Shown here: positions 8,498-29,392 of the stretch, one piece after another
How positions within the stretch are numbered: position 1 is the first letter of the stretch
Layout: each line of letters starts with the position of its first letter
NCBI GenBank assembly: GCA_049599475.1
Contig: JBMYOQ010000038.1
Coordinates: 1 to 37,654, forward strand
Reading direction: 5' to 3'
Length of the DNA stretch: 37,654 bases
From: Opitutales bacterium
Lineage (GTDB): Bacteria; Verrucomicrobiota; Verrucomicrobiia; Opitutales; JABSRG01
Program-made: the position numbers and the translations under genes
Notes under the pieces: generated by a model
Database searches by the model: none
What the model was told of the DNA's origin: nothing
Seen by the model: the letters and a program-made list of their open reading frames with translations, nothing else

Positions 8498-10225
8498 GTG
8501 TCTCTCTCTAAAACACCTCATAGAAGGCTCAAATGGCTCACGGTGCTCAGTGTCATCTGCACGCTGTGTACGCAGCTGAATGCCGACTACAAGGACGCCA
8601 TTGGCTACACCGAGCTAAAAACTTATTTAGAGCTGCGAGGCATCGAAGTGCCCAATGGCAACGGGATCAAGGTGACTCAGGTAGAGGCATCCACAAGCCA
8701 AGGAGACACCCCAGCCTACCTGCCCGACACCACAAGTAACGAATTCTCAGGCAAAACCATCGTCGATTTGAGCCCTGGGGGCGATATTTCGGGCCACGCG
8801 ACGAACGTCGGTAAACTTTTCTTCGGCAACGAGACCTCCGTTGCCCCTGGGATCACCGATATCGATACCTACGAAGCCAACGACTTCCTCAATGTCCAGG
8901 GCTGGGCCACCACGCTCGAGCCCCCTATCGAGACCAGCAGTGTCCAAAATCACAGCTGGGTCGCGCAGGAGATCGACGACGCCGTCGAGTCGCCCATTCA
9001 AAATCTGATTATGGATTATGCGATCCAGAGGGATGACTTTCTCCTCGTAGCTGGCTTGAATAACGGGTCCGGCAAAGAAATACCCGATCTTTACGCCCAT
9101 CTGTGCAACGGTATTTCGGTCGGACGCGCAGACGGCAATCACAGCAGCGGAAACACGCAAGACATCTATCTGCCCGGACGCACAAAGCCAGAGATCGTCT
9201 CCGATGCCTCTGCTACCAGCAATGCGACTCCCCAAGTATCGGCCGCAGCCAGTCTTATTTACGACATGGCCAACGACACGATCGGCCATCGCTCAGTTAA
9301 GGCAATCCTCCTCGCTGGCGCAAATAAAGAAGCCTTCGCGGATTGGGACCAAACCATATCAAGACCGCTTGACGAGACATATGGTGCAGGCCTTCTCGAC
9401 ATTTTCGCCTCTTATCAAATTTTAGCCGGCGGGAAACAAGCACCTGGAGCGATCACCGATAGCTACGGTTGGAACCTAGACACCTTGGCCAGCAATAGTT
9501 ACCACACCTACACATTCACGGTCCCCCAGGGTTTTGAGCTGCGCAACCTATCGATACTCCTTACCTGGGATATCGTGGTGACAACTTTTCCCGAACAGGG
9601 GGCCATTTCAGGCGACCTCGCAGACATGGCCCTCTACCTAAACGAGGGCGAAAATAGCCTCCAGATCAGCGATAGCATGGTCGACAACGTCGAGCACATC
9701 TGGCGCGGCTCAGGCGTAAGTCTCCCCGCCGGCCAATATTCGATCACAGTCAGCACAAACGAAGCAGCGACCTACGCTCTCGCCTGGCGAGGCGACCTCT
9801 ACCAGGGCTACGAGCTTTGGCAGTCCATTGCATTTTCCCCGGAAACACCGACCGAGGATCAGGATAGGACAGACGACCCAGATAAGGATGGCATCGTTAA
9901 TCTACTCGAAATGGCCCTGCTCACGGATCCGGAAAACCATCAACTCGGAGTCTTACCCTATCAGATCACGTCCATATCTGACGGAGACACCTACCAAGAG
10001 CTGGGAGTCAACATCCCCACACATTTAAACGACCTTAGCTATACCGCAGAGACAGCCACCGATCTACTGGGCATCTGGAGTAGCGACCCCGCCGATGTAT
10101 CCCTGGTCGAGATCCTCCCAAGCGCAAATGGCTTCGAACAATACATCTTCCGCCGCACCCTCCCGAGTGAGAGTGCAGAACAAGCATTCTTGCGCCTGAA
10201 AGTCGAAGAGACAGTCGAGCCGTAA
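8498..10225 (+). CDS. Secreted S8 (subtilisin-like) peptidase with C-terminal Verrucomicrobia-type surface domain
   Basis: Signal peptide. Catalytic-site-like segments VTQVEA, SGHATNVG, VAGLNNG, KPEIV, ATSNATPQVS, KAILLAGA, YGAGLLD. Tail carries DDPDKDGIVNLLE and ends FLRLKVEE. Confidence 0.8.
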   Translation: MSLSKTPHRRLKWLTVLSVICTLCTQLNADYKDAIGYTELKTYLELRGIEVPNGNGIKVTQVEASTSQGDTPAYLPDTTSNEFSGKTIVDLSPGGDISGHATNVGKLFFGNETSVAPGITDIDTYEANDFLNVQGWATTLEPPIETSSVQNHSWVAQEIDDAVESPIQNLIMDYAIQRDDFLLVAGLNNGSGKEIPDLYAHLCNGISVGRADGNHSSGNTQDIYLPGRTKPEIVSDASATSNATPQVSAAASLIYDMANDTIGHRSVKAILLAGANKEAFADWDQTISRPLDETYGAGLLDIFASYQILAGGKQAPGAITDSYGWNLDTLASNSYHTYTFTVPQGFELRNLSILLTWDIVVTTFPEQGAISGDLADMALYLNEGENSLQISDSMVDNVEHIWRGSGVSLPAGQYSITVSTNEAATYALAWRGDLYQGYELWQSIAFSPETPTEDQDRTDDPDKDGIVNLLEMALLTDPENHQLGVLPYQITSISDGDTYQELGVNIPTHLNDLSYTAETATDLLGIWSSDPADVSLVEILPSANGFEQYIFRRTLPSESAEQAFLRLKVEETVEP

Positions 10226-21090: not shown

Positions 21091-21165
<75 letters not shown>

Positions 21166-22542: not shown

Positions 22543-22548
22543 CACCAT

Positions 22549-22720
22549 TCCCCTGCAGCGTACGTGACCTATCGTGTTCTTTCCTTATGCTTCTTAATAT
22601 CGGGGATCAGCCCCTCCCTGTGGAAGTCACGCCGTAAACCGGAAGACCGAACTAGGGAGGAAGATTCCCACCTGAAAATTCCAGGTCAAAGAACACACCC
22701 TATACGGCGCATGCGGGGCC
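22549..22720 (+). ncRNA. ssrS: 6S RNA (probable)
   Basis: ~170-nt rod. 5' CCCCTGCAGCGTACGT pairs with 3' TACGGCGCATGCGGGG, GTGTTCTTT pairs with AAAGAACAC, there is a large central bubble and an inner CTCCCT/AGGGAG stem, and a T-tract follows. The ends resemble typical 6S termini. Confidence 0.8.
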
Positions 22721-22765
22721 CTTTCTTTTTTGTAGGTGAGTACGGATGAAACACAGATCCGGCCT

Positions 22766-25831: not shown

Positions 25832-26518
25832 ATGATCCTACTAATCGACATGACACATCTTGATTTTTCGGAGAACCAACCGGAAAATTGGCAGTCCGTC
25901 GCCCATCGGCGTCTACGCACCAAATATCGCTTCGAGGAACTCTCTGGAGAGCCTTGCCACGTCTTACGCTACACTCAATTCCCAGCCTGGCTGAGTGGGC
26001 GGTATCCAATACAAGGAGTGAACCGACTCGTATTCTCCGGATTTAACACTGAATTCGACCAGTATCCGTCTGATATCCTTGAAGCCATCAAGGGTTGGAT
26101 GCTCTCGCCACGCCTCCCTACGTTCACAATCTGTGGTAGCTTCCAACTGATGGCTCATGCACACGGTGCTGAAATTGCACCCATCGGAAAACAAGCCCCA
26201 GGCGCCACAGAACATGATGACCCGATAGTGCCGCAGGGCATGACTGCTGAGCTCGGCTTTCAAGAAGTCCAAGATCATCACCCTTCAAAACTCTTCGATC
26301 GCGAGATCCCACAATTTACCGTATTCCAACACCACTATTGGGAAGTGAAAAACATCCCAGACGGTTTCCGCCACACCGCAAGTTCACCAACATGCCATAT
26401 CCAAGCACTGGAACACAACACCCTCCCCCTTGCCGGAGTCCAATTCCACCCAGAGGATTACGACGACACGCACCCTGATGGAAAAACCCTTCTACTCAAC
26501 GTATTTAAGAAACGGTGA
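25832..26518 (+). CDS. Class I glutamine amidotransferase-like protein
   Basis: Nucleophile elbow TICGSFQLMA, QHHYWEV, GVQFHPE. Confidence 0.85.
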   Translation: MILLIDMTHLDFSENQPENWQSVAHRRLRTKYRFEELSGEPCHVLRYTQFPAWLSGRYPIQGVNRLVFSGFNTEFDQYPSDILEAIKGWMLSPRLPTFTICGSFQLMAHAHGAEIAPIGKQAPGATEHDDPIVPQGMTAELGFQEVQDHHPSKLFDREIPQFTVFQHHYWEVKNIPDGFRHTASSPTCHIQALEHNTLPLAGVQFHPEDYDDTHPDGKTLLLNVFKKR

Positions 26519-26604
26519 CATGAATATTTTCCGCAAATATCAATTCTTCGATTGACAGAATTTTTCATTCACCTATCAAGACAGACGATCTAACCAAAAG
26601 AATT

Positions 26605-26724
26605 ATGAACTGCTCAATCACAACCCGACTTATTATGCCAGAATATAAGAATACACACACAGTACTCTCAGGCGGCATCAACAACCGGGCAGTTCAAGGA
26701 CGCAACAACTTTGAACTAGAATAA
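26605..26724 (+). CDS. Putative 39-aa leader peptide of an attenuator
   Basis: MNCSITTRLIMPEYKNTHTVLSGGINNRAVQGRNNFELE*. Lies downstream of TTGACA(26552-26557) and ends 24 nt before a terminator hairpin. Confidence 0.55.
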   Translation: MNCSITTRLIMPEYKNTHTVLSGGINNRAVQGRNNFELE

Positions 26725-26748
26725 AGACTACAACAGTCTAAATTTTCC

Positions 26749-26785
26749 AAGCCCGGTAGCACAACGCTTCCGGGCTTTTTGTTTT
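26749..26785 (+). terminator. Intrinsic terminator / attenuator in the slipin leader
   Basis: AAGCCCGG-t-AGC acaac GCT-t-CCGGGCTT followed by TTTGTTTT. Confidence 0.75.
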
Positions 26786-26916
26786 CCGCCGCTCAAAAGT
26801 TTAAGGGTGCCCTTCTCACCGGACCTCAGAAGGTAAAACGTCTCGTAAATGGCGTCCAATCCACAGGTGTCTGCACATGTGATAGGGGCGACTGTACCCA
26901 ATTCAGCGGAAAACAA
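26779..26916 (+). ncRNA. Candidate structured RNA 1 (four-way junction inside an 11-bp stalk)
   Basis: TTGTTTTCCGC/GCGGAAAACAA stalk, GGGTGC/GTACCC stem, hairpins CCTTCT/AGAAGG and ACGTC/GGCGT, and a long third arm 26856-26886. Confidence 0.5.
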
Positions 26917-26983
26917 TGAATGTATTTACAATTCAGTTACGCAAAAATTTTCATATCGCTTTTAAGCCACCTAGTTTCTTTGC

Positions 26984-27087
26984 GGTCACGTACTTCGGAG
27001 TGCGATGTAATCGACGTTAGCAACAATCCGTTCTTCAGAAGTTACATATTCAATGAGGTTTCTAAGAACGCACCCGAACACGTGGCC
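26984..27087 (+). ncRNA. Candidate structured RNA 2
   Basis: GGTCACGT..TTCGG.GTG pairs with CAC.CCGAA.ACGTGGCC, enclosing the long hairpin 27029-27070. A T-rich tract follows. Confidence 0.45.
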
Positions 27088-27207
27088 ACTTATTTTTTAT
27101 CGGGGCACGCATATATAACGCAGCAAGCTCCAGCACATTTCGGATTTGGCATTCACCGCCATTCACCGACCCACCCAACCGACCATCATAACATCCACCG
27201 AAACACA

Positions 27208-28313
27208 ATGAACCTACTACTATTCAAGTATATACGTGTTCCATACGAACACCTGGGCTTGAAGTTCAAAGAAGGTCAATTCATCGGATTGATTCGTCCT
27301 GGGAGCACGTGGGTGTTCGATCCATTCAACAGGATCGTCATCAAGGTGCTCGCTCAGACCGTACCCAGGATTGACCTACACGAACCCAAGCTTAAACAGC
27401 TAAAAGACCACCCAGAAACCGCGACACTCGCAGAGTTTGTCGATCTTAAAGACAACGAACGCGGCCTGGTGTGGTACGACGATCGATTTCGAGGTATCTT
27501 GAGACCCGGCACTTATGGATATTGGACAAGCCGTTCCAAAATCTGCATCGAAACGATCCCAATCGAAACAATTCGATTCACTCACCCTGAGTTCGATACC
27601 ATTACGCGGCACCCGGATGCACAGCATGCTCTGGACGTGAAAAACGTCCCGCAAGGCCATGCAGGAGTTCTCTTCATAGATGAGCGCTACTCTGGCCAAC
27701 TCAATCCGGGGCGATACGCATTCTGGCGCGACTCAGGATCCGTAAAACTCCACATCTATGAACTCAGAGAAAATGTCTTGGAATACCAGGATCCAGAGAT
27801 CCCGACAAAGGATAGAGTCAACACCAGCATAAAAGCTGTAGTGACTTTTCAAATCGAAGATCCCTCAAAACTGGCAGAGACGACAACCGATTCAGAGCGC
27901 GTGCTTCGCCGCGAACTTCAGCGATCTCTTCAGTCAGCCGCTAGCTCAAAAACTCTCGATGAATTGCTTTTAGGTAGGTCCATCATTTCGACTCATGTCT
28001 TCAGCAAGATCAAAGAGAGCATTCAACACTACGGCATCCGGATCATAGATCTTAGAATCCAAGAAATTAAAATATCTGAAAAAGAAATGGGCCTCTTAAA
28101 CCAAACGAAGGGGCCTTCTGAAACCGCTCAGGCAGGCGGCTTCACGCGTCGGGAAGACACGGCAACTATGCAAAGTTAGCTCAAGCAGAGCAAACCTAGC
28201 GGAAACCGTGACTTCTGCGACTCCACGGACTCTAGTTCGTGGGAAAAACAAGCAAGGGCGCACATCTGCAAATCATCGTTGGTGATGGGCAGACACTCAC
28301 CATGCGCCGTTAA
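27208..28313 (+). pseudogene. Slipin (SPFH/band-7) family gene with degenerate C-terminus
   Basis: Repeated 'GL.F..G.F...L.PG.Y..W' slipin N-terminal units and an SPFH core ending RREDTATMQS*(28179). An out-of-frame remnant P*LLRLHGL*FVGK..LQIIVGDG continues to 28313. Confidence 0.7.
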
Positions 28314-28393: not shown

Positions 28394-29392
28394 ATGAATA
28401 TCGAAGATATTAATTTTATTCGCGGCTGCCTTCCTCGCGGCCGCACAAAATTCTTAACCTTCAAAGACCAATATGCACCAACGCTCTTGTCATGGAAAAT
28501 CGGAGATAATCGCATCCCTGTTTCACAGCTCAAGTCACACCCAGCATTTACCCATTTATCCAAAAAGCCAATCGTCCAAGACCTCATCAAGATCAATGGC
28601 GGTCGCGATGTATCCAGCGAAACACTCAATGTTTGGCCAAACTTCAAGACCGTTCACGCATTTCGGCTAACCCTGGATCAATGGGGCGATAGTCTTTCAG
28701 CAAATAATTACTGGAACCAGACTTCTCGCCGCGGGCACAATCTAGTGCTTCAGCTAAACTTCCCCAAGAGCCACGGTTCCGAATACCGCAAGCTCGGCAA
28801 TGACGACTCGGACCCCTGCGGCTTCATCTACGATAGTCACCCAGTTAAAACTGAAAGTGAATACACGATGGCATGGTCGCGGATCGACCTGGACCTCGAT
28901 GCGGGCGTCGCCCTTATCGAAGAAATTCAAAACGATTGGTTACGCGAAGCGAAATGGTTGTATCAGAATCTCAAAAACAGAATCGAAGCGAAAAAGATAA
29001 CGCCCTGGAATGACTGGGGTGACACTTATGTGCGTAATATCCTTGCATATTACGAGACTCATATCGCGCCACTCGAATCTATTTGGGATGAAGCTACACT
29101 GCTCGCAGCGCTTCACCTCATCCGCAATGAGCTAGGAATACACCGCGTATATTACCACACTTGGGAGACAGGAAACTGGTTCAAACGCATCGGAAACACC
29201 TACACACCTCCCAAGTCGATATACACGGCACTTCCACGTAAGTTCGGATTCAAGAAGGCGAGTACCGGCCCCGGATTCATACTCCGGGATAAAACAAATC
29301 GTCGCAGGCTGAAGGCCTTCTACCAGGGACGCCAAAAGCACTCCTGGTGGTATTACGACCTATCTCCAGTCGACGAACTTCAAAGCAATTAA
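28394..29392 (+). CDS. Conserved-looking hypothetical protein (QTSR.G.NLVLQLNF / AWSRIDLD / IEEIQNDW motifs)
   Basis: Intact ~332-aa ORF (ATG 28394; the track start 28331 lies in the hairpin). Motif-dense, but function not assignable. Confidence 0.75.
   Translation: MNIEDINFIRGCLPRGRTKFLTFKDQYAPTLLSWKIGDNRIPVSQLKSHPAFTHLSKKPIVQDLIKINGGRDVSSETLNVWPNFKTVHAFRLTLDQWGDSLSANNYWNQTSRRGHNLVLQLNFPKSHGSEYRKLGNDDSDPCGFIYDSHPVKTESEYTMAWSRIDLDLDAGVALIEEIQNDWLREAKWLYQNLKNRIEAKKITPWNDWGDTYVRNILAYYETHIAPLESIWDEATLLAALHLIRNELGIHRVYYHTWETGNWFKRIGNTYTPPKSIYTALPRKFGFKKASTGPGFILRDKTNRRRLKAFYQGRQKHSWWYYDLSPVDELQSN

Follow-up and report, generated by a model that had tools for sequence, protein, structure and literature searches.

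Introduction

Ribosome-mediated attenuation of transcription is known in its classical form from the enterobacterial trp, his, leu, thr, and pheA operons, in which the position of the ribosome decides the outcome. In the pyrBI and pyrE leaders of Escherichia coli, the leader open reading frame (ORF) crosses the terminator and a closely coupled ribosome blocks formation of the hairpin. Here we analyze a locus that resembles these systems in an Opitutales bacterium of the phylum Verrucomicrobiota, lying in a stretch of 37,654 nucleotides (GenBank assembly GCA_049599475.1, contig JBMYOQ010000038.1, positions 1 to 37,654 of the forward strand), which is referred to in full as the window. A prior sequence-only reading of this DNA had proposed a promoter, a leader ORF, and a terminator/antiterminator pair gating the expression of a slipin operon; comparison across homologous loci supports this core, and we consider it reasonably probable that the region 26552-26785 is a ribosome-dependent transcription attenuator.

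Like the trp, his, leu, thr, and pheA leaders, this region combines a promoter-proximal ORF with a terminator whose 5' arm could pair inside that ORF; here too, the terminator outweighs the alternative fold in stability, as it does in trp, such that the antiterminator would have to act kinetically. It differs from the amino-acid leaders in having neither a regulatory codon run nor a conserved peptide, in the greater length of its ORF (39-64 codons across the homologous loci), in its phyletic position in Verrucomicrobiota, and in what it would control, viz., a structured RNA, tRNA arrays, and a pair of genes coding for a slipin-like protein and a protein with a GNAT-like fold. The terminator-crossing geometry of pyrBI and pyrE is matched by a second ORF in most of the homologous loci, but the window lacks a start codon for the frame that crosses its terminator.

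Two further groups of described systems are pertinent. The first comprises antibiotic-responsive, ribosome-mediated attenuators of resistance genes, e.g., those of vmlR (PMC9226507) and msrD (bioRxiv 10.1101/2021.11.29.470318). Their leader ORFs are reported to lack amino-acid-specific codons and to let general stalling relieve the terminator, which is also the logic that we prefer for the present locus; however, those leaders are short and precede ribosome-protection or resistance genes, whereas the leaders considered here show no conserved stalling motif and nothing at the locus points to a resistance gene. The second group is the long tRNA arrays, which are reported from several phyla including Verrucomicrobia and as horizontally spread (PMC8421152). 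The array of Anabaena sp. PCC 7120 is there described as silent until translation is impaired, upon which it is induced, with its control attributed to direct repeats spanning the -10 box and the start site, through a putative repressor; the text consulted mentions no attenuator, leader, or terminator for the Anabaena array. As far as it is described there, the Anabaena L-array shares with our loci the supernumerary, horizontally spread tRNAs, and its inducing cue matches the one that we propose; it differs in that control in our case would be exerted by a leader rather than by promoter repeats, and in that the locus in the window is without tRNAs. Our literature search for leader peptides or attenuation ahead of tRNA arrays, and for tRNA arrays associated with SPFH proteins or with Verrucomicrobia, turned up no report of attenuation of this kind preceding tRNA arrays.

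Conservation of the leader ORF across homologous loci

The features of the promoter and leader in the window are the following (G001 denotes the genome of a congener):

26552-26557, plus strand: -35 element TTGACA, the same in G001 although the spacer has diverged.
26574-26579, plus strand: TATCAA, a weak -10-like hexamer separated from the -35 element by 16 nt; TATCTA in G001.
26605-26724, plus strand: leader ORF of 39 codons (MNCSITTRLIMPEYKNTHTVLSGGINNRAVQGRNNFELE) with an ATG start, no Shine-Dalgarno sequence, and a 5' untranslated region of about 17 nt.
26684-26690, plus strand: ACCGGGC, in codons 27-29, which would supply the antiterminator with its 5' strand; exact complement of GCCCGGT at 26751-26757.
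26691-26717 and 26718-26746, plus strand: two hairpins between the antiterminator strands, with the stop codon (26722-26724) in the base of the second.
26750-26785, plus strand: intrinsic terminator, comprised of a hairpin at 26750-26776 (-17.7 to -18.6 kcal/mol) and a T-tract at 26776-26785 (TTTTTGTTTT).

Our comparison extends over 16 loci in all, of which 15 bear the leader and one (L060) is without it; some of the analyses cover 14 or 13 of them. The order of elements in these loci is an A/T-rich tract, a TTGAC promoter, the leader, a GC hairpin with at least five T, a conserved structured RNA that we term block B, tRNA genes, and a slipin-like gene, with the combination of a TTGAC promoter, a leader of 190-265 nt, and a terminator being found in 15 of the 16. 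Every one of the 15 leaders contains an ATG-started ORF of 39-64 codons; the 39-codon ORF that the sequence-only reading had described in the window is indeed present and has a counterpart in all leader-bearing loci. The position of this ORF is constrained at both ends: its ATG, counted from the initial T of TTGAC, lies 51-56 nt downstream in 14 of 15 loci (53 nt in the window; the exception is L054, with 74 nt), and its stop codon lies 51-62 nt ahead of the T-run in 15/15 loci and 23-30 nt before the 5' arm of the terminator in those loci where the arm was parsed. The leaders themselves fall into eight clusters that show no similarity to each other in blastn searches. The length of the ORF in the window is matched by 1.4% of 3000 dinucleotide shuffles, the per-leader shuffle P values range from 0.013 to 0.075, and a conservative combination that takes the least significant P of each of the eight clusters yields a Fisher p of 5.9e-7 for the presence of the ORF. 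Two loci that were fetched after the hypothesis had been formed (L073 and L076) both fit the pattern.

The peptides, on the other hand, are unrelated between clusters, and their Cys/Ser/Pro-rich composition resembles that of a random frame. Between the window and G001, whose leader ORF likewise has 39 codons, there are 22 differences spread 8/8/6 over the codon positions, and the 16 changed codons comprise 3 synonymous and 13 non-synonymous ones; the chance of random mutation preserving such an ORF is 17%. The leaders of L055 and L059 are 66% identical and both have 54 codons, with no indel between them and with differences distributed 17/18/21 over the codon positions. These comparisons bear on the notion that the ORF encodes a functional small protein ahead of a terminator that is merely leaky. 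The preservation of ORF length would fit this, as would the closest pair, L055 and L056 (8 differences), in which 5 of 8 changed codons are synonymous against an expectation of about 23%; however, the excess of synonymous changes is confined to that pair, the spread over codon positions being even in three of the four pairs compared, and the lack of relationship between the peptides, their random-like composition, and the absence of any Pfam match to the leader peptide render this explanation very improbable. Rather, given that frame and position are conserved while the peptide is unconstrained, the leader ORF carries the signature of one retained for being translated, the product itself being apparently unimportant.

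The same comparison narrows the nature of the cue. No run of a single residue or codon is present in any of the 15 leader peptides, which extends to the whole set what had been remarked for the peptide of the window. Further, codons matching the tRNAs of the downstream arrays make up 34.6% of the leader ORFs and 34.2% of the slipin genes, i.e., they are not enriched, and we accordingly rejected the idea that the leader codons are tuned to the downstream tRNAs. Because of this lack of enrichment and of codon runs, general translation is the more likely cue; the lack of conservation of the peptide, together with the lack of a single-codon run, points to the pace or amount of translation itself. 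These observations exclude the amino-acid-operon subtype of attenuator and still allow the general kind.

The promoter assignment draws on both the homologs and the stable RNA genes of the same genome. TTGAC occurs at the corresponding place in 16/16 loci, mostly with an A/T-rich tract in front, and TTGAAA occupies a comparable place in the 6S and SRP RNA genes of the genome to which the window belongs, whose promoters have in common a -35 element GTTGAAA and a weak -10 element. The hexamer TATCAA (26574-26579) was not called by a consensus promoter scan. Conservation with G001 first appears at the -35 element and is unbroken from 26588 on, and we estimate that transcription starts near 26587-26588. 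The palindrome TCAAT-N6-ATTGA (26540-26555), which the sequence-only reading had pointed out as overlapping TTGACA, is present as described, though a role for it as an operator found no support: palindromes over the -35 element occur no more than by chance, and the corresponding sequence in G001 is TCGAT..GTTGA, the non-compensating changes indicating that it is not conserved. No Shine-Dalgarno sequence precedes the ORF in any of the leaders. As for other RNA genes nearby, the 6S RNA gene (22547-22723, 74.9 bits) and one tRNA gene (21094-21165) lie 4-5 kb upstream.

Terminator and candidate antiterminator

An intrinsic terminator following the ORF, with a GC hairpin and then TTTTTGTTTT, had been predicted for the window, and its counterpart is kept in 15/16 loci as a hairpin with a run of at least five T. 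Three of the seven pairs of its stem change on both sides among the loci, and 93% of the cells are paired. As just 2-3 T follow the stem on the minus strand of the homologs, we take the terminator to be a plus-strand signal; a simple terminator scan missed this hairpin on account of its T.T mismatch and the size of its loop.

The exact 7-bp complementarity of ACCGGGC (26684-26690) and GCCCGGT (26751-26757), on which the proposed switch hinges, was also recovered, and ACCGGGC is the best duplex partner of the 5' arm of the terminator in the window (P 0.024, 1000 shuffles). Likewise present are the intervening hairpins AGTTCAAG/TTTGAACT and AGACT-ACAAC-AGTCT; in the lower stem of hairpin 3, the second of the two, an A-U pair is replaced by G-C in a compensatory manner relative to G001, and two single changes there are compatible with pairing. 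The RNA spanning 26580-26790 folds at -48.4 kcal/mol against -33.2 +/- 4.0 kcal/mol for shuffled versions (z -3.8, with none of 200 as good), and in transcripts cut at 26757-26769 the ACCGGGC/GCCCGGT helix is part of the minimum free energy (MFE) fold, where it closes a three-way junction. To extend the comparison to other loci, the 5' arm of the terminator plus a 4-nt foot was matched against the RNA from the estimated start to the end of the ORF in 13 leaders. The complementarity found yields P values of 0.012-0.30 relative to shuffles, being at or below 0.05 in 8/13 loci, with a cluster-wise Fisher p of 0.0013, and the complementary partner lies 31-71 nt ahead of the ORF stop in 10/13 loci. 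A candidate anti-antiterminator is weak, amounting to 4 bp between 26624-26627 and 26686-26689. What comparison of the loci shows is a recurrent ORF and terminator, an excess of complementarity to the 5' arm of the latter, and conserved synteny.

The RNA structure raises the possibility of a factor-dependent attenuator, in which a protein or small ligand would set the choice between terminator and antiterminator with no involvement of translation. The leaders are well structured (z -3.8 in the window and MFE values from -46 to -96 kcal/mol across the loci), and the antiterminator complementarity fits such a device equally well. Yet the conserved binding site to be expected of it is missing from the eight mutually dissimilar clusters, which instead conserve an open frame and its position. 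Rfam searches, too, gave no riboswitch match in the leader; in the region 26400-27400 the best match, at E 0.36, was to Trp_leader and covered the terminator alone, its 19.7 bits falling short of the gathering score of 41. We accordingly regard factor-dependent control as quite improbable.

Proposed mechanism of the attenuator

We propose the following scheme, in which translation of the ORF, the action of the antiterminator, the sign of the response, and its cue are what we infer. The TTGACA promoter would start an RNA near 26588, and the 39-codon ORF would be translated from its short 5' untranslated region without a Shine-Dalgarno sequence. If no ribosome has come as far as the last third of the ORF, ACCGGGC could pair with the 5' arm of the terminator as soon as that arm is synthesized, the two intervening hairpins drawing the antiterminator strands together; the terminator would thereby be blocked, and transcription would continue into block B, a further conserved stretch (block C), the slipin-like gene, and the gene for the GNAT-fold protein. 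Conversely, a ribosome that reaches the stop codon at 26722 would unfold hairpins 2 and 3 and occupy the would-be antiterminator loop, whereupon the local terminator hairpin would prevail and an RNA of about 200 nt would be released. The preferred sign is that of an operon turned on when translation of the leader is impaired.

Several observations weigh against this scheme. At equilibrium the full transcript favors the terminator (P 0.9999, -46.3 vs -41.2 kcal/mol), and the terminator forms in every ribosome-masking scenario tried, early stalling included. In folding, by which the sequence-only reading had thought the switch could be checked, the antiterminator helix appears in truncated transcripts, and none of the masking scenarios tried abolishes the terminator. 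Since the terminator wins once its 3' arm exists, the antiterminator could act only kinetically. The covariation of the ACCGGGC/GCCCGGT pair that had been suggested as a check in homologs was not found, the pair being invariant in G001, the sole close relative; and in 5/13 loci the best complementarity does not exceed that of shuffles at 0.05. ACCGGGC lies 32-38 nt upstream of the stop codon, where a ribosome at the stop would leave it uncovered, and hence masking of the antiterminator by the ribosome rests on steric exclusion. Moreover, the ATG of the slipin gene is 422 nt away from the terminator, with two further conserved blocks in between, and one locus (L060, in genome G318) has neither leader nor terminator, with a TTGACC promoter about 70 nt before block B, which implies that the module can dispense with the leader.

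A further difficulty comes from a second ATG-started ORF of 56-70 codons, which opens a few nucleotides from the stop of the first in 11 of 14 loci (L051-L059, L061, and the second copy on contig C86 of the window's genome) and crosses the terminator and block B, that of L054 opening inside the terminator. This geometry suggests a coupling of the pyrBI kind with the opposite sign, where a ribosome close behind the polymerase would melt the hairpin and the operon would be on when translation keeps pace. Consistent with coupling, an AAGGA lies 9 nt ahead of the second ATG in one family of loci (f12), and the window itself is open from 26725 to 26919, in frame with the leader ORF after its TAA up to a TGA at 26917-26919. 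However, neither the window nor G001 has an ATG for this second frame, which is broken in G001 by two indels; the second ORF occurs in two different frames among the loci, even between close relatives, and as both frames are open in most loci this openness may stem from a conserved core that is poor in stops. Coupling would also leave the enriched antiterminator complementarity without a role, and we hold it to be unlikely, though it is the least remote of the alternatives weighed here. We retain, as the preferred one, the scheme in which impaired translation of the leader would turn the operon on.

Conservation in the congener and the ACAAC motif

DNA searches with the leader across 60 relatives found it in the congener G001 alone, a contig search likewise returned the congener only, and no paralogue of the leader was found in the window's genome; by eye, no analogous element was seen upstream of the slipin homolog of G003. 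Conservation of the leader between the window and G001 is on par with that of 6S RNA, for which the identity is 91%, with 88% for the SRP RNA region and 60% for the slipin proteins. The leader is conserved to this degree although the flanking genes are decayed in G001, where the upstream amidotransferase gene is lost except for 24 codons and the slipin gene has an in-frame TAA.

The leader of the window is also rich in the motif ACAAC, with 5 copies against 0.97 in shuffles (P 0.0018, or 0.04 when any 5-mer is allowed), and, of the clusters with at least five ACAAC in the genome (4.68 Mb), this is the sole intergenic one, the remaining 4 lying inside long ORFs. The presence of ACAAC in all three hairpin loops, to which the sequence-only reading drew attention, holds for the window, but the loops are not conserved: in G001 the copy in hairpin 3 is kept, that of hairpin 2 is shifted, and the terminator loop reads ATAAC, and beyond the genus the motif is not conserved.

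These features together favored, at one stage, a free-standing small RNA of about 200 nt acting in trans via its ACAAC loops, with the ORF being incidental. Such an RNA would account for the presence of a dedicated promoter and a strong terminator, for conservation equal to that of 6S RNA amid decayed flanking genes, for the enrichment of ACAAC and its placement in three loops, and for the compensatory change in the stem that overlaps the stop codon. But a non-coding RNA leaves unexplained the ORF in 15/15 unrelated leaders, neither the leader sequence nor ACAAC is conserved past the genus, no paralogue or Rfam match is found, and block B requires read-through of the terminator. The small RNA was dropped as the principal explanation once the comparison of block B and the recurrent leader ORFs had emerged, and we now rate it as rather unlikely; even under ribosome-dependent attenuation, the terminated leader RNA may have an additional role in trans. 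The notion of the ACAAC loops as a protein sponge was likewise set aside, in that a search of the genome, which is 96.6% complete, revealed no gene for Hfq, and the motif is not conserved past the genus; a CsrA gene is present in the window's genome.

In 13 loci the start codons of the slipin genes follow G-poor, A/C-rich tracts with CAAC/ACAAC repeats and no Shine-Dalgarno sequence. Such A/C-rich CAAC tracts may be a local ribosome-loading signal, which would account for the ACAAC in the leader, or ACAAC may be just the local type of unstructured, ribosome-friendly RNA.

Block B, a structured RNA following the terminator

Directly downstream of the terminator hairpin is the most conserved part of the locus, with the following features:

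26779-26916, plus strand: block B, a conserved structured RNA directly after the terminator hairpin, without a match in Rfam.
26779-26789 with 26906-26916, plus strand: helix P1, pairing the distal T-tract and the next bases with an A-rich downstream strand.
26811-26816 with 26828-26833, plus strand: helix Pa.
26834-26852, plus strand: invariant core.
26853-26857 with 26886-26890, plus strand: helix P3, containing a U.G pair.
26862-26865 with 26878-26881, plus strand: helix Pb.

The sequence-only reading had placed the leader immediately ahead of the slipin operon; a slipin-like gene does follow in 13/14 loci, but the direct neighbor of the terminator is block B. Over the 116 nt past the T-tract its identity to G001 is 97-100%, above that of any other part, and over an alignment of 117 nt it is 96%, compared with 91% for 6S RNA. 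BLAST searches with 26786-27100 against 401 genomes of the order recovered it in 13 of them, and a pattern built from its core matched 16 loci in 15/401 genomes, with 0 matches for the reversed control; in a sample of the phylum outside the order, 0/201 genomes had it. A second copy occurs in the window's own genome (G000) on contig C86 at 8982-9148 (nhmmer E 9e-31). Across the loci 94.4% of the cells are paired and 43 double changes occur, where sliding the partners yields 27-46% and 3-11, respectively, and 0/500 shuffles reach as high a value. The comparison thus delineates four strongly covarying helices, the first of which is the terminator hairpin, along with a core of about 26 nt that does not vary. 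In P3, a U.G pair is kept in 12/14 sequences, which fixes the plus strand as the relevant one. P1 is supported in 10/16 loci at P < 0.06 and has no support in G001; in those 10 loci its 5' strand is the distal T-tract, suggesting that the read-through RNA is what matters.

Rfam matches at the gathering score in the window are the 6S RNA and one tRNA, both outside the leader and block B, and in 8 homologous loci tRNAs alone attain that score, chance matches (E up to 0.1) being far below it. Block B is a well-supported new structured RNA motif, confined to one verrucomicrobial order as far as searched. Other identities considered for it were discarded: SRP RNA, for which the gene lies on another contig; a coding region, the frames being broken by indels in G001 and unlike among relatives; and an RNA from the minus strand, against which speak the T-tract, the U.G pairs, and the orientation of the tRNAs, all favoring the plus strand. 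A single metagenome match to a 20-mer of block B is attributable to chance, as the DNA around it is unrelated and high in GC and the match falls within a cupin-like ORF. In L060, the locus without a leader, the first tRNA starts about 10 nt past the 3' strand of P1; with this spacing, cleavage by RNase P could release block B there.

Downstream genes and tRNA arrays

Beyond block B, the unit in the window comprises a second non-coding block and two genes:

26994-27087, plus strand: block C, a conserved non-coding stretch before the slipin-like gene.
27208-28179, plus strand: slipin-like (SPFH/Band 7) gene (Pfam Band_7, 5.5e-26), the first protein-coding gene of the unit.
28394-29392, plus strand: second gene, whose product has a GNAT-like fold; homologs start at Met22 of the ORF, which itself is open from 28331.

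In 14/16 loci tRNA genes on the same strand follow block B, numbering 1-17 within the DNA fetched, whereas no tRNAs are present in 26400-27400 of the window or at this place in G001. The tRNA array appears to be ancestral and to have been lost in the window's genus, with the control region and the protein-coding genes being kept. Some members of the arrays (L051-L061, L073, L076) are odd, including tRNAs with undetermined anticodons, a 97-nt call of tRNA-Pro, and a tRNA-Sec-like call that is sub-threshold in Rfam. A second, diverged copy of the module resides in the same genome at C86:8745-11055 (L038/L077). Its promoter is TTGACT and its leader ORF has 50 codons; a terminator and block B come next, then three tRNAs and a slipin paralogue that is 37% identical. 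The anticodons that ARAGORN assigns to these tRNAs are unusual (ATT, ATG, and one undetermined).

Over its 94 nt, block C shares 81% identity with G001, whereas the DNA on either side cannot be aligned, and the frame through it is not kept in G001; its word TTCGGAGTG recurs at the corresponding place on C86. Conservation with G001 jumps again at the ATG of the slipin-like gene (27208). Homologs of this gene (34-40% identity) follow block B in all of the 14 loci considered except L054. In the slipin-like protein the Band 7 domain is preceded by some 230 N-terminal residues; this N-terminal region matches itself, indicating an internal repeat, and extra copies of it occur in homologs of 505-530 residues. 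Two polyA seawater metatranscriptome runs of one study each yielded one contig, 100% identical and covering 27158-27400; both contigs begin at 27156-27158, 50 nt ahead of the slipin ATG, which hints, if only faintly, at processing or at a separate 5' end there. These data are assembled contigs of polyA libraries that do not cover the leader, and they carry no weight for or against the leader switch.

The true start of the second gene is probably at 28394. Homologs of this gene follow the slipin-like gene in 6/14 loci. Its product has no match in Pfam, NCBIfam, or PADLOC; residues 110-345 of its structural model align by VIA-align with GNAT acyltransferases (Z 9.7, rmsd 3.2 A, 121 aligned residues), and, among the matches listed, all 50 are of the GNAT type. 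A Foldseek search of the same model against the PDB gave no match at E <= 0.001. PADLOC assigned no defense system.

Functional and evolutionary implications

Taken as a whole, the module has the appearance of a unit that has spread horizontally and is induced by translation stress, and from which the tRNAs have been lost in the window's genus. More tentatively, and as a possibility to which we assign clearly less confidence than to the attenuator itself, we suggest that it might constitute a translation emergency kit of one verrucomicrobial order, combining a promoter, a ribosome-sensing leader, block B, a tRNA array, a slipin-like scaffold, and a GNAT-fold acyltransferase. If so, the attenuator would be the missing sensor that switches on long tRNA arrays upon ribosome stalling; block B would be a new class of functional RNA working with tRNAs or ribosomes; and the promoter would be of the stable-RNA type, with the sensor having been kept in the window's genus for the sake of an RNA and two proteins.

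If the attenuator operates as proposed, a leader ORF that reads the performance of the ribosome would represent a second and simpler way to induce tRNA arrays, and a reporter and four point mutations would suffice to ask what turns these arrays on. The comparison also reveals a well-supported new structured RNA and an unstudied pair of slipin-like and GNAT-fold genes that are tied to tRNA arrays.

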